Origin: a virus | Taxonomy: Duplodnaviria; Heunggongvirae; Uroviricota; Caudoviricetes | Reading direction: 5' to 3' (one strand) | DNA length: 9,715 nt | IMG/VR virus record: IMGVR_UViG_2713897054_000020 | Shown: positions 4,234-9,715 of the stretch, piece by piece | How positions within the stretch are numbered: position 1 is the stretch's first letter | How the letters are laid out: each line of letters opens with the position of its first letter | Position numbers and translations under genes: made by a program | The notes under the pieces: model-generated | The model's database searches: none | The model's input: the letters and a program-made list of their open reading frames with translations, nothing else | What the model was told of the DNA's origin: nothing

Positions 4234-4420
4234 TTTTGCGCCTCACTTTTTAAAGAGTCTCGCTTCGTCTCACTTGATATTTTTGATGTTTTTATGTGCA
4301 TGTTTCATAAGGATTTTTTTACTCCTCACTTTTTGGGGTATATATACGTTGAAAAGTGAGGAGTTCAGGGGGTTTTTCGTTCAATTACTCATTGTCCTCA
4401 CTTTTGCGCCTCACTTTTTA
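4229..4420. repeat. putative replication origin: iteron array with an AT-rich inverted-repeat core
   Basis: Two perfect 24-bp direct repeats CTCACTTTTGCGCCTCACTTTTTA at 4229-4252 and 4397-4420. The sub-motif CTCACTT(TT) occurs at least six times on the plus strand and once inverted. A 12-bp inverted repeat CTCCTCACTTTT (4322-4333) / AAAAGTGAGGAG (4351-4362) flanks the AT-rich spacer TGGGGTATATATACGTTG. Sits immediately 3' of the replication helicase gene. Confidence 0.6.
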
Positions 4421-6858: not shown

Positions 6859-7095
6859 AACCGGACGGGCAACGGCTACGCGCTTCGCGTTCCGTCCAGG
6901 CGGTTACGTGGATGATTTGAGATTCTCCGGCACTCAGTGCCAGAAAACGCCACACAAAGGCCGTTTGTGTGTGTACAAGGTGTGGTATATGATTTACAGC
7001 AACCATAACGGCTCCTAGTTTACGTTGTTGGTTAGAAGCCCCGTTACTGCTCCTACAGTGCGGGGTTTCGTCGTTTCTACACCTTGCCTTAATAA

Positions 7096-7148
7096 GGTGT
7101 TGAACACCAATTTAAATCGAGGTGTTAAACACGTCAAGTGTTGAACAC
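7096..7148. promoter_or_regulatory. operator array: three copies of a palindromic site GTGTT(G/A)AACAC
   Basis: GTGTTGAACAC at 7097-7107, GTGTTAAACAC at 7122-7132 and GTGTTGAACAC at 7138-7148. The third overlaps a putative plus-strand -35 TTGAAC (7141-7146); a -10 candidate CATACT lies at 7164-7169. The array sits between the divergent leftward operon and the RHH gene. Confidence 0.55.
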
Positions 7149-7198
7149 TTATTTTTTTTCCTGCATACTGCATTTGTTTTTTATGAGGGGTGCTCAAC

Positions 7199-7378
7199 AT
7201 GGCGACAAAAGCAGTAAACGCAAAATCACAAACAGTTGCGGCAAGGGTTCCACATGAAGTTATGAACAATGTTGAGGCGGTAAAAATGCCCGGCGAAAGT
7301 ACAGGGCAGTTTGTTACAGCTGCATTAAAGCGGGAAGTTGAATACCGCCAGCGCCGCAAGACCAAAGAATCAGAATAA
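7199..7378 (+). CDS. small ribbon-helix-helix (Arc/CopG-like) DNA-binding protein, putative repressor
   Basis: ATG at 7199 with SD GAGGGG 8 nt upstream (the track start at 7190 is a GTG inside the SD). The N-terminal pattern QTVAARVPHEVMNNVEA followed by GESTGQFVTAALKREVE fits a beta-strand/helix/helix RHH fold. Lies directly downstream of the operator array. Confidence 0.6.
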   Translation: MATKAVNAKSQTVAARVPHEVMNNVEAVKMPGESTGQFVTAALKREVEYRQRRKTKESE

Positions 7379-7435
7379 TCACCATCAGCGCCGTGGTGTG
7401 AGGAACTCCGGCGCATTGCTTTACAGGAACACACA

Positions 7436-7639
7436 ATGACCAACAAAGAATCAACCAATACACCATCGCAAAAAACGAACAGAGAGCACGAAAATATGGC
7501 GCTCGAGCATGAATCAGAAAGATTCGCACCATGCGCTTTTGTCCTTGATGAGTTTCTAAAAAAATATTCACGTTCTGAACGGATGAAAATGGCAGCACAA
7601 TACGGCCCCAACAAGCAAGATAATTGCCCACCAGCCTGA
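7436..7639 (+). CDS. hypothetical small protein (67 aa), uncertain
   Basis: ORF downstream of the RHH gene on the same strand with a weak AGGAA SD, followed by a plus-strand terminator-like hairpin. Polar, low-complexity N-terminus. Could instead be untranslated. Confidence 0.35.
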   Translation: MTNKESTNTPSQKTNREHENMALEHESERFAPCAFVLDEFLKKYSRSERMKMAAQYGPNKQDNCPPA

Positions 7640-7709
7640 TCGCGGTTATCATGCCCGGGCTTATGATTGTTGACACATACGGCGCAGCGGGTTAATTGTT
7701 CAGAAAGGT

Positions 7710-7735
7710 GGCTCCATTTCGGGGCCGCTTTTTTT
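7710..7735 (+). terminator. putative intrinsic terminator of the RHH operon
   Basis: Stem GGCTCC (7710-7715) pairs with GGGGCC (7721-7726) with one G-U pair, then GC and a T7 run (7729-7735). Confidence 0.4.
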
Positions 7736-7760
7736 ATGTTCATCATTTGCCCTATATATG

Positions 7761-7967
7761 TTAAGCGGTCGTTCCGCGCGCTTTTTGTTCGCGTTCTTTC
7801 ATCCATGCGATTACGTCTTCCTCATACCATCCGCGACGGCGCAAACCGACACGAAAACCCTGCGGGAATTCTCCGGCGTTGATCATGCTTTGCAGCGTGC
7901 TGTCTGCCTTAATGTGGATAAGTTTTTTTACTTCCTGGCGAAAGATGACTTTTTTGATTGCTTCCAT
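7761..7967 (-). CDS. alpA: AlpA-family (excisionase-like HTH) transcriptional regulator
   Basis: 68 aa. SD GAGGT 8 nt upstream of ATG 7967-7965. Sequence block STLQSMINAGEFPQGFRVGLRRRGWYEEDVIAWM follows the AlpA/Xis MerR-like HTH pattern (S.ST, G.FP, G.R, W, DV, W). Confidence 0.8.
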   Translation of the reverse strand: MEAIKKVIFRQEVKKLIHIKADSTLQSMINAGEFPQGFRVGLRRRGWYEEDVIAWMKEREQKARGTTA

Positions 7968-7985
7968 CGTGATTTACCTCATTAA

Positions 7986-8013
7986 TCCGGTGTATTCCGG
8001 TGTATTCCGGTGA
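7986..8013. repeat. tandem direct repeat (TCCGGTGTAT x2 plus a partial third copy) immediately upstream of alpA
   Basis: TCCGGTGTAT at 7986-7995 and 7996-8005, then TCCGGTGA at 8006-8013. Lies between the alpA SD and its presumed promoter. A palindrome ACCGTTT-TT-AAACGGT is at 8055-8070. Confidence 0.5.
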
Positions 8014-8108
8014 GAAATACGGTAAATCATCGGATGCAGGGAAAAACAGTACTCACCGTTTTTAAACGGTATACACAGTTTTTTATATTGATGATTTGAA
8101 AGGGATTT

Positions 8109-8133
8109 ATAAAAAAAGCGGCATTTCTGCCGC
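8109..8133 (-). terminator. rho-independent terminator
   Basis: Stem GCGGCA (8118-8123) pairs with TGCCGC (8128-8133) around loop TTTC, with an A9 run at 8109-8117 giving a U-tail on the minus strand. Lies directly after the stop of the 83-aa ORF (8145). Confidence 0.6.
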
Positions 8134-8144
8134 TTTCAGGATTG

Positions 8145-8396
8145 TTACCGCCATTTTTTTGGCCTGCCTCCGGTCTTCATGGATGCCGGACGTACAACCT
8201 TATCAATACTTACAGCCAGATTTCTGGAAGCCCCACGGGATACCAGGAAATCTACTACCTGTTTTTTTGATGGGGCCGTCGTTCTGTCCTCCGGATCGTA
8301 GGTTGACCAAAATTCATGCTGAACCATCAGGGCCAGTTGCAGCCCGTCGCAATTGCATCTGAAATTTGTTTGCATCTTAACAGTTTCATTTTTCAA
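8145..8396 (-). CDS. hypothetical small protein between int and alpA (possible excision or regulatory factor); start uncertain
   Basis: Minus-strand ORF followed immediately by a strong terminator. The track start is a TTG at 8396; the first ATG is at 8375 and lacks a clear SD. Basic C-terminus (GGRPKKWR). Confidence 0.4.
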   Translation of the reverse strand: MKNETVKMQTNFRCNCDGLQLALMVQHEFWSTYDPEDRTTAPSKKQVVDFLVSRGASRNLAVSIDKVVRPASMKTGGRPKKWR

Positions 8397-8473
8397 GGCC
8401 TCGTCGTTAAATGTGATGCAATTATACGACGGTTTTAAATGGTTTTCGTAGTTTTTACTGGTTTTCTGTACAG

Positions 8474-9715
8474 CTAAACGGCTCGGATACCCCTTTTACC
8501 ACTGGCGAGGGTTACGCCCGTCGCCGCAGCCTCGACAAATTCGCCCCACCAGCGCATAAGCACGATGCGTTTTTCTATGTAGTTGCTCCGGTTGTATGCC
8601 CGTCTGACTTCGTTGGTGTCGACGTGGGCAAGTGCGGCCTCTATTACGTCTGGCTCAAAGCCTTCTTCGTTCGCTGCTGTGCTGAATATGGCGCGTAATC
8701 CATGAGACACCAGCACGCCAGCGAATCCCATGCGTCGTAATGCTGCGTTAGCGGTCTGGCTGTTCATCGGCTGCTGTGGGTCTTTCAGACTCGGGAAAAC
8801 ATAATCGCGGTGGTGGCTGATTGGTTTCATAGCCTCCAGCACTGCCATAGCCTGGTCACAAAGCGGGATAACGTGGTCGCGGCGCATCTTCATGCGTCCG
8901 GCGGGTATGGTCCAGCGTTGCGCTTCCATGTCGATTTCTTCCCAGCGTGCCGACGATGCTTCAACGGGACGGGTTACGGTCAGTAACTGCCATTCAATCA
9001 GTAATCTGGTCTGCCGTTCTGTTGCCGATACTGATAAAGCCTGCATAAGCTCCGGCAGCTGTTCGGGGCGGATTGTTGGCATATGTTTTTTTACAGGGGA
9101 GGGGAACGCCTTACGCACATTCATAGCCGGATTGGCATCAATCATCCCACTATTGGCGGCGTAATCCATTACCTCATTTATACGCTGTAAAACTCGCTTG
9201 AGCGTTTCCAGGTTGCCACGTTCCTTGATGGGGGTAAGCACCTCAACGAACCTGCGAGCGGTCAGGGTGTCTATTGGCGTGTTGCCGATGAACGGGAATA
9301 CATATTTTTCCAGCGATCGCCAGATGTCTTTAATCGTATTGGGGGCCAGATTCTGGCTGATTTTCACCTGGTACCATGCTGTTGCCACATTTTCGAACGT
9401 GTTCCCTTGTCTTCGGGCCTCTGTCTCTCTTTTTTGCCTCTCGTGGTCCTGCGGGTCAGTTCCGGCACGAATTAACGCCCTGTACTCGCTACGGCGTTTT
9501 CTGGCATCAGCCAGGGAAACATCATCAAGCGATCCAAAACTCAGCAATATTCTTTTTTTGTCCGATGGTCGGTAGTAGGAAAATCTCCAGAGTTTTGATC
9601 CGGACGGTTTGATCAGGAGAAAAAGCCCTCCGCCGTCCTGTAGGGTGTATTCCTTTTCTGCTGGTCTGGCTGCTTTGATCTGTACTGTGGTTAATGGGGG
9701 TGTTTTTCTCGCCAT
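8474..9715 (-). CDS. int: tyrosine site-specific integrase, P4/CP4-57 family
   Basis: 413 aa. The N-terminal arm-binding region LTTVQIKAARPAEKEYTLQDGGGLFLLIKPSGSKLWRFSYY matches the P4-type integrase pattern (DGGGLYL..KP.GSK.WRF.Y). The C-terminal catalytic region carries HGLRA, HVIPLC and a late RRAYNRSNY segment that probably holds the catalytic Tyr. The ATG is the last three bases of the window, so the promoter and attachment site lie outside it. Confidence 0.9.
   Translation of the reverse strand: MARKTPPLTTVQIKAARPAEKEYTLQDGGGLFLLIKPSGSKLWRFSYYRPSDKKRILLSFGSLDDVSLADARKRRSEYRALIRAGTDPQDHERQKRETEARRQGNTFENVATAWYQVKISQNLAPNTIKDIWRSLEKYVFPFIGNTPIDTLTARRFVEVLTPIKERGNLETLKRVLQRINEVMDYAANSGMIDANPAMNVRKAFPSPVKKHMPTIRPEQLPELMQALSVSATERQTRLLIEWQLLTVTRPVEASSARWEEIDMEAQRWTIPAGRMKMRRDHVIPLCDQAMAVLEAMKPISHHRDYVFPSLKDPQQPMNSQTANAALRRMGFAGVLVSHGLRAIFSTAANEEGFEPDVIEAALAHVDTNEVRRAYNRSNYIEKRIVLMRWWGEFVEAAATGVTLASGKRGIRAV

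Follow-up and report, generated by a model that had tools for sequence, protein, structure and literature searches.

Phage-inducible chromosomal islands (PICIs) of Gram-negative bacteria have AlpA as their master activator, and no description of how a helper phage switches it on was found within the literature searched. The alpA promoters of PICIs are silent without a helper, are induced by lambda, phi80 and Kapi1 independently of the SOS response and are boosted by AlpA itself; no cis element was mapped in these studies, and neither start site nor inducer was named (PMC6092414, PMC11773190). Uncontrolled AlpA of EcCICFT073 leads to runaway replication of the island, which is harmful to the cell (PMC6092414) and provides a rationale for tight, default-off control. 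Here we describe the control region of the alpA-like gene carried by a 9,715-nucleotide stretch of viral DNA (IMG/VR record IMGVR_UViG_2713897054_000020), referred to as the window throughout. It is 100% identical to E. coli STEC2017-197 and represents a satellite island of ~10 kb inserted beside tRNA-Pro, between yejO and yejM of E. coli. As in PalpA of EcCICFT073 and EcCIMP1, the region lies between int and alpA, reads inward from the att end and precedes a small AlpA/excisionase-like regulator; in contrast to theirs, the AlpA of this island is a distinct allele, known here from sequence alone. An earlier note on the window had singled out a tandem repeat and a palindrome upstream of alpA as candidate sites for the inducing factor or for autoregulation, given that alpA is usually switched on first in helper-induced islands; the helper-induced, AlpA-autoactivated promoters of the published PICIs agree with this view (PMC6092414, PMC11773190).

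We replace this "repeat plus palindrome" by a leader anatomy in which a candidate promoter is followed by a 5' hairpin with its U-tract and by a second hairpin that would enclose the Shine-Dalgarno sequence (SD) of alpA and carry a CCGG:CCGG cap. RNA structure is the most economical reading of the conserved leader parts. On this basis we tentatively propose, at a little under an even chance, a double RNA-level brake on alpA, made up of an attenuator-like 5' hairpin and of SD sequestration. A weak sigma-70 promoter (-10 at 8090-8085) would start the transcript at ~8078, and its first 32 nucleotides, containing four half-sites, would fold into a hairpin followed by U5-7, acting as a promoter-proximal attenuator or terminator or as a 5'-terminal structure. 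This hairpin would stop most transcripts short of alpA. Those that continue would form the second hairpin, in which a 9-bp stem (8029-8021 with 7978-7970) would hide the SD and the top would be the CCGG:CCGG stem built from the conserved 1.8 repeat copies, leaving translation of alpA off by default. Helper-phage induction and positive autoregulation by AlpA would have to overcome both locks. The sequences and their conservation, the fold predictions, one covarying pair, the strand asymmetry and the allele frequencies are direct results; the promoter, the start site, termination, translational repression and the link to helper induction are what we infer. The model fits the other PICIs since alpA is silent there without a helper, is induced independently of SOS, boosts itself and does harm when uncontrolled.

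The predicted SD-sequestering hairpin is formed, on the minus strand, by a 3' arm at 7970-7978 (sense GGUAAAUCA) and a 5' anti-SD arm at 8021-8029 (sense UGAUUUACC), the latter lying within the invariant block TGATTTACCGTATTT; both arms fall within the inverted repeat I6 (7970-7983 / 8016-8029). The 3' arm includes the final GG of the SD (GAGG, 7980-7977, minus strand) and the spacer up to position -3 of the AUG. In the loop, CCGG tetramers at 8010-8007, 8000-7997 and 7990-7987 are predicted to pair into one or more apical CCGG:CCGG stems. With RNAfold, the SD stem is predicted both in the allele of the window, at -28.5 kcal/mol (z=-3.9), and in that of E. coli Nissle 1917 (NZ_CP171242, island near 1,704,280-1,704,650), at -21.5 kcal/mol (z=-3.2); in four alleles, the GGU of the SD is left unpaired with a probability of less than 0.01. 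RNAalifold, applied to 13 distinct leaders, returns the 9-bp basal stem together with a 4-bp CCGG:CCGG apical stem (its helix 2) from the two conserved repeat copies; basal pairing is kept in ~98.3-98.8% of cells, against 21-46% in slid controls. The pair 8027/7972 is A-U in seven of these leaders (clade A and L009), U-A in three (clade B), U.G in one (L012/13) and broken in two singletons. Its covariation score of 0.058, compared with 0.019 in shuffles, is reached by 2/500 of them. We regard this covariation as supportive, not conclusive, the remaining 12 pairs saying nothing either way because they never vary. The Rfam 15 covariance models gave no match in 7900-8150 at E<=1. CsrA sites were rejected, as the GGA lies in a stem and not in a loop. 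Long-range pairing of the repeat with the palindrome was also rejected as a general structure, its constrained folds in clade A being less favourable than local hairpins by 12-16 kcal/mol; the two segments concerned, 7990-8014 and 8052-8076, are 72% mutually complementary (CGGUG with CACCG; I1), and forcing them to pair costs only 2.3 kcal/mol in clade C.

The repeat that provides the apical stem is present as the earlier note described it, a 10-bp unit in 2.8 copies upstream of the alpA SD, and the gene context given for it was right. TRF detects a single array, 7986-8012, in which 2.7 copies of the 10-bp consensus TCCGGTGTAT match at 100%, and reading of the sequence gives TCCGGTGTAT TCCGGTGTAT TCCGGTGA over 7986-8013, that is, on the alpA sense strand, CACCGGAATA 2.8 times just 5' of GAGG. 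Within the island, CACCGGAATA at one mismatch or less occurs solely in this array, and TTTACCGTATTT solely at the alpA control region. As a family feature, the figure of 2.8 copies did not hold. A search of E. coli genomes with 7960-8045 as the query found 310 genomes, and with Logan, metagenome and IMG/VR relatives added, 98 leaders were collected; 1.8 copies are found in 303/310 of the former and in 93/98 of the latter. Only 7/310 genomes match the query at >=99% identity, every other sampled row being 10 bp shorter, and six aligned E. coli relatives are each exactly 10 bp short in the array. Likewise, 93/98 leaders have two CCGGA and 5/98 have three. Related elements therefore keep 1.8 copies of the repeat, and most of them lack the third.

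The third copy is a lineage-specific 10-bp slippage duplication present in ~2% of the elements. Three strains with 2.8 copies differ from one another by independent point changes at 8077 and 8078, indicating that the duplication arose once, somewhat before these changes, in one small lineage. A perfect period-10 array of 27 nucleotides is far above chance for 9.7 kb; this significance stems from the recent duplication and not from selection, the ancestral 1.8-copy form having 8 matching bases and not being significant as a repeat alone. The effect of the third copy is probably neutral, as judged from the predicted SD stem: the 10 additional nucleotides of the window allele enlarge the hairpin loop from 22 to 32 nucleotides and leave the stem untouched. 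Phase variation by repeat number was rejected, as only two alleles exist, at 98% and 2%. The core shared by the whole family is TCACCGGAATA-NN-CCGGA (CCGG-N6-CCGG), in which copy 1 (TCACCGGAATA) is invariant; of copy 2, only CCGGA remains in clades B and C. A second copy trimmed in this way is more readily reconciled with a CCGG:CCGG stem in the RNA than with a reiterated binding site for a protein.

The "16-bp palindrome" of the earlier note is found at 8055-8070, not as a perfect 16-mer but as two 7-bp arms around a 2-nucleotide centre (ACCGTTT-TT-AAACGGT), and the distance to the repeat, given as 45 bp, is a gap of 41 nucleotides. An inverted repeat with 7-bp arms at a given gap is expected ~0.6 times per 9.7 kb by our own arithmetic and is unremarkable alone; its significance comes from the extension to 20-nucleotide arms (inverted repeat I2, 8042-8061 / 8064-8083, 75% match) and from conservation. 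The palindrome corresponds to the inner two of four half-sites (HS), all on the minus strand: HS1 (AAACTGT, 8081-8075; AAACGGT in relatives), HS2 (ACCGTTT, 8070-8064), HS3 (AAACGGT, 8061-8055) and HS4 (ACTGTTT, 8050-8044). Together, from 8081 to 8044, they make up two tandem 20-bp units AAACGGT-N4-ACYGTTT, in the sense-strand order A6 - AAAC(G)GT - N4 - ACCGTTT - AA - AAACGGT - N4 - ACTGTTT - TT. HS2, HS3, HS4 and the T-run are invariant across ~100 sequences. HS1 drifts at one position, with G, A or T, the T being found only in this window. The N4 spacers are 4 nucleotides long throughout, with the sequences GTAT, GAGT, GGGT, GACT, GGTT, TATA, TCTA and GGGA, and the centre between HS2 and HS3 measures 2 nucleotides in clades A and B and 1 nucleotide in clade C. 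E. coli VG35A2 (L003) has lost exactly one 20-bp unit, equivalent to 8058-8077, between CACCG direct repeats; the palindrome is gone, a hybrid unit is kept and the predicted hairpin is abolished (-0.4 kcal/mol). The palindrome as such is thus not the conserved unit, since its centre varies and one relative has dispensed with it.

At the RNA level, this array has the look of a terminator or attenuator (8042-8084, minus strand): A6 (8084-8079) is followed by a 32-nucleotide hairpin (8078-8047) and by U5 (8046-8042), the latter lengthened to U7 in clade C. A terminator-like program match covers the inner stem. Folded with RNAfold, the hairpin reaches -7.9 kcal/mol in the window and -9.4 to -16.0 kcal/mol in relatives as sense RNA, and -5.5 to -10.2 kcal/mol as antisense. 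The sense strand is the more stable in 9/9 full-length variants because the non-Watson-Crick positions are G.U on that strand. In L004, 4/5 of these positions are sense-strand wobbles, a bias with a chance of ~0.3% by our own arithmetic if mismatch types are equally likely. The G-to-A change in HS1 of clade B converts G.U into A-U, and in 2012EL-2448 (L202), at the equivalent of 8078, a sense C-to-U change converts C-G into U.G and keeps the pairing. In the window, a sense G-to-U change at 8077 breaks a pair and opens the outer stem, which explains the weaker hairpin of this allele. The complete 125-nucleotide leader folds into exactly the two hairpins (-42.8 kcal/mol, z=-6.05). We lean to RNA because such strand asymmetry would not be expected of a dyad bound by protein.

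The same features can be read as DNA operators, the main alternative, which we consider somewhat unlikely. The 20-bp units, at about +1 to +38 of PalpA, would bind a dimeric protein, which may come from the helper (its inducing factor), from the host or from the island itself (a repressor such as orf77 or a different small protein), and the phased CCGG/CACCGG repeats would be sites of autoregulation by AlpA. Proteins of the RDF/Xis type (recombination directionality factors) bind phased direct repeats, and the spacing of the CCGG copies is exactly 10 bp. Inverted half-sites conserved at a fixed distance, with 4-bp spacers that vary in sequence and never in length, are indeed an operator-type trait; the two units follow each other at 20 (or 19) bp, close to two turns of the helix, and L003 has removed precisely one unit and retained a complete hybrid one. 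Invariant bases outside the predicted stems (GTATTT, TCA and AATA) suggest sequence-specific recognition, and the related E. albertii element likewise has tandem repeats in its int-alpA spacer. However, the strand-independent symmetry expected of a palindromic operator is missing: the deviations of the dyad are G.U-compatible on the sense strand only. In addition, HS1 drifts and the array persists, the gap between the units shifts by 1 bp in clade C, and copy 2 of the repeat is only CCGGA in clades B and C. No other island promoter has a further copy of the half-site motif or of the repeat, the divergent promoter region of the island (7090-7150) using a different palindrome, GGTGTTNAACACC. Phage genomes provided no match either: a blastn comparison of 7968-8144 with 50,697 phage records yielded chance matches only, and among the matches listed in an IMG/VR scan for AAACGGTN4ACCGTTT there were satellites and scattered single matches, with no second unit in an E. 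coli-like contig. Within this limited test, the suggestion that helper genomes might share the motif found no backing.

The most obvious island-encoded candidate for binding such operators is orf77, a 76-amino-acid open reading frame (ORF) between int and alpA (8145-8375, minus strand), which PGAP annotates as a coding sequence. It is 66-96% identical across all three clades, and its homologues are found solely in E. coli. The AF2 model has three helices (pLDDT 80) and a basic tail, GGRPKKWR. No match to orf77 was found in Pfam, PHROG or NCBIfam, and a Foldseek search of its fold against the PDB returned nothing at E<1. We therefore rejected orf77 as an obvious repressor, in view of the missing family match and of the missing match to a recognisable DNA-binding fold, which also speaks against the operator reading; it is a possible trans factor of the alpA control region. 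A protein labelled "AlpA family" (P0036, 90 amino acids) has the N-terminus of orf77 fused to the C-terminus of AlpA, that is, a deletion spanning the whole control region; it is filed under the nematode Cooperia oncophora and probably represents bacterial contamination. Upstream of orf77 (8397-8473, minus strand), a perfect TATAAT at 8426-8421 lies within an inverted repeat with 11-nucleotide arms, CGTCGTATAAT / ATTTAACGACG, adjoined by the direct repeats GAAAACCAGTAAAAAC / GAAAACCATTTAAAAC. The segment 8430-8456 of this region is 78% similar to the half-site region of alpA at 8057-8083.

Block identities, computed among ten representatives of the clades, separate the leader into two classes. 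Identity reaches 100% for HS4 with T5, 96% for the anti-SD arm block, 95.5% for HS2-loop-HS3, 93% for A6-HS1 and for the repeat core, and 91% from the SD arm to the ATG. It falls to 66% at the third codon positions of alpA, 42-66% in the N4 spacers and 51% both in the linker between the two hairpins and in the DNA upstream of the -35. The contrast with the linker and the third codon positions indicates that the blocks are under purifying selection. It is also what makes an account without function very improbable, in which the repeats would be slippage by-products and the resemblance would reflect recent common ancestry in a young element family. This account would accommodate the third copy, a neutral-looking slippage product, the 20-bp units, which resemble a tandem duplication and of which one relative has lost one, and the origin of all relatives from E. 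coli/Shigella-type sources; it fails to explain identities of 42-66% in linker, N4, upstream DNA and third codons next to 92-100% in the conserved blocks. The earlier note had proposed the region as a control site of alpA: the constrained block directly upstream of the gene supports this view in part; the lack of either motif elsewhere in the island and, within the limited test above, in phage genomes does not.

The promoter and its start at ~8078 are predictions from the sequence. Our own position weight matrix (PWM) places the candidate sigma-70 promoter at 8085-8113 (minus strand), with the -35 TTTATA (8113-8108), a 17-nucleotide spacer and the -10 CAATAT (8090-8085). In each of the three clades the top PWM site keeps an identical distance to the ATG, the upstream DNA being unrelated between clades; its variants are TTTATA, TTGCAA, CTGATA and CTGACA for the -35 and CAATAT, TGAGAT, CAACAT and CACGAT for the -10, with a 17-nucleotide spacer. 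With a start at ~8078, the hairpin would begin at +1 and U5-7 would lie at about +33 to +38. The clade alignment shows no conserved sequence upstream of the -35, where a classical activator would bind. Immediately upstream lies the intrinsic terminator of orf77 (8111-8133, minus strand; inverted repeat I11), GCGGCA-GAAA-UGCCGC followed by U7, which our own terminator scan scored as strong (-10.7 kcal/mol with T7) and whose U-tract overlaps the candidate -35.

This terminator is at the origin of another, improbable, explanation, which combines insulation with fold-back inhibition. The 5' hairpin would back it up against read-through from int and orf77, and the true promoter, dependent on an activator, would lie downstream, for instance with a -10 TACCGT at 8023-8018. 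Native transcripts would then start inside the loop without the anti-SD arm, and the CACCGG repeats would be at about +1 to +20; only read-through transcripts would bear the arm and be translationally silent. The tandem arrangement of a strong terminator (8133-8111) with a hairpin and U5 argues for this explanation, as does clade C, which lacks the first terminator and keeps the hairpin. TACCGT is invariant, matches three key -10 positions and is listed by the PWM in Nissle and L008, and its poor -35 would suit a promoter silent without an activator. Its -35 region, on the other hand, falls into the least conserved linker (51% identity), its PWM scores of 2.8-4.6 are below those of the upstream candidate, and the invariance of the anti-SD block would have to be maintained by rare read-through transcripts alone.

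Several observations weigh against the double RNA brake. The 5' hairpin is long and rich in AU and GU, with a d'Aubenton-Carafa score that is negative to borderline by our own arithmetic, and in the Nissle allele, the commonest one, the minimum free energy structure consists of two small unit hairpins whose A-U pairs consume the U-tract. In absolute terms, the hairpin energies are not outliers in the window, ranking 936/6448 and 376/6428. A consensus scan called no promoter on the minus strand, the candidate being a weak PWM match. In the SD hairpin, covariation concerns one pair, broken by two unique sequences, with the other 12/13 pairs never varying, and the invariant loop residues GTATTT, TCA and AATA are not accounted for by pairing. 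The invariant N4 length, the 20-bp spacing of the units and the exact deletion of one unit in L003 equally fit protein operators. The leader of a related alpA gene, that of E. albertii, shows no structure (z=+1.3), and reporter data in other PICIs were interpreted as promoter activation (PMC6092414). The loop residues would find a use if the leader itself sensed the helper, with PICI induction acting after initiation, by antitermination or translational activation, and not by activation of the promoter: a function of a lambdoid helper, for example a processive antiterminator, an RNA-binding factor or an RNA-remodelling factor, would let the polymerase pass the 5' hairpin, open the SD hairpin, or both, and would recognise the leader by the invariant bases that surround the CCGG stem in the loop. 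To this extension of the RNA brake we give little credence.

Other assignments were tried for the region and rejected. A lambda CII-type site (TTGC-N6-TTGC analogue) would place the -10 on the start codon, the lambda operator half-site TATCACCG is a half-site only, and boxes of the CRP, FNR, IHF and PurR/Cra types fit poorly in motif or position. Integrase arm sites were discarded at a distance of 1.7 kb from att. Iterons of a replication origin were likewise discarded; the candidates for these are located at 4234-4417.

The alpA-like gene downstream of the leader (7761-7967, minus strand) encodes 68 amino acids and probably belongs to the winged helix-turn-helix excisionase/regulator family. 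We call it AlpA-like on the grounds of its match to PHROG 66, "excisionase and transcriptional regulator" (E=1.7e-7; PHROG 66/2790, E~1e-7), and of the PGAP names in relatives, including L001/L005, namely "AlpA family" or "helix-turn-helix transcriptional regulator". The match to Pfam AlpA (PF05930), at 17.9 bits, is under the cut-off of 21, and no NCBIfam match was found. In position, alpA is two genes away from the P4-type integrase. Close AlpA homologues number only 18 in the databases searched, all from E. coli/Shigella, and the leader relatives found all come from E. coli/Shigella-type sources; a scan of genome contigs with the single protein as the query returned no relative. E. albertii NBRC 107761 (L017, 2211-2370) has an AlpA that is 57% identical and an int-alpA spacer with unrelated tandem repeats, GGAGCCAATTT four times and a ~23-bp unit three times, upstream of a good TTGACT-18-TATTCT promoter. 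Given this different spacer and unstructured leader, the conserved anatomy, as judged from sequence comparison, is specific to the present alpA lineage and restricted to E. coli/Shigella in the databases searched.

The layout of the island, with int-alpA followed by a variable zone, replication genes and late genes, is that of Gram-negative PICI-type satellites (PMC10111431). The P4-type integrase gene occupies 8474-9715 on the minus strand, which also carries genes for an Icd-like protein, a RepA-type helicase, SSB, a lambda E-type capsid protein, a decoration protein and a Nu1-like small terminase. A plus-strand pair, a YlcI/YnfO-like gene (7190-7378) and a 67-amino-acid ORF, converges on alpA. 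On the minus strand, a 263-amino-acid ORF (7015-7806) overlaps these plus-strand genes; PGAP names the corresponding stretch in relatives an "ash family" or "Icd-like" pseudogene, and the ORF has the appearance of a remnant or of a spurious call. Some relatives, such as L011, carry a full gene of 491 amino acids with an Ash domain directly after alpA. Where the Icd-like/replication operon and the YlcI-like gene diverge (7090-7160, plus strand), the palindrome GGTGTT(G/A)AACAC(C) occurs three times (~7097-7109, 7121-7133 and 7138-7150) and is followed by T8; the adjoining segment 7027-7107 has one of the most stable folds in the window. The probable role of this region is that of the island's operator or immunity-RNA region. 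Just downstream of the RepA-type helicase gene (4234-4417), at least six repeats of the CCTCACTTTT type are present in both orientations, with TTGATGTTT 2.8 times at 4274-4297 and a very stable hairpin at 4321-4365. From its sequence, this segment is a candidate replication origin with iterons.

The leader map offers a testable handle on the induction of alpA by helper phages. If the RNA-level reading is true, two independent cis locks prevent leaky expression of a toxic regulator with positive feedback, and the search for the helper's inducer should cover antitermination and translation, beyond promoter binding. If it is false, the same map supplies the operator half-sites.

In the transposase mRNA of IS10, read-through transcripts are translationally silent owing to fold-back inhibition. 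The alpA leader resembles this SD-sequestering system in having an upstream segment complementary to the SD and a stable stem that is predicted to keep ribosomes from binding; it differs in the conserved CCGG:CCGG stem and the invariant bases that its loop adds. Its 5' part recalls lambda PR'-tR' with Q and P. aeruginosa PalpB-tB with AlpA, in which a promoter is followed, within tens of nucleotides and ahead of the regulated gene, by a hairpin and a U-tract, the P. aeruginosa terminators beginning 26-54 nucleotides past the start (PMC7969949, PMC9371919). In comparison with these antitermination systems, the 5' hairpin of alpA is weak by terminator rules, and neither a binding element nor a pause signal was identified in it. 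The P. aeruginosa antiterminator was rejected as a model: its "AlpA", Q-like and built of eight helices, is much larger than the 68 amino acids found here, its DNA-contact residues being numbered R128-H142, and its mechanism is not transferable because it belongs to a different protein class. In P4, the activators of the promoter PLL are of the Ogr/Delta class and are supplied by a P2-type helper. Its vis gene encodes an AlpA homologue and is the first gene behind this helper-activated late promoter, translationally coupled to the next gene (PMC10111431). The present island shares P4-like neighbours, Icd-like and Ash-like, with P4; in contrast, its late genes are lambda-like (capsid E, decoration, Nu1) and nothing is conserved upstream of its -35. 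With the tandem dyad operators of phage repressors, finally, the leader has in common a pair of 18-bp inverted repeats whose internal spacing is fixed and which lie two turns apart, overlapping the predicted start, and it departs from them by its single locus in the element, its strand-asymmetric imperfections and the lack of an identified cognate repressor. The alpA leader adds a further case to kinds of control already known, namely a leader hairpin with SD occlusion or, alternatively, operators.

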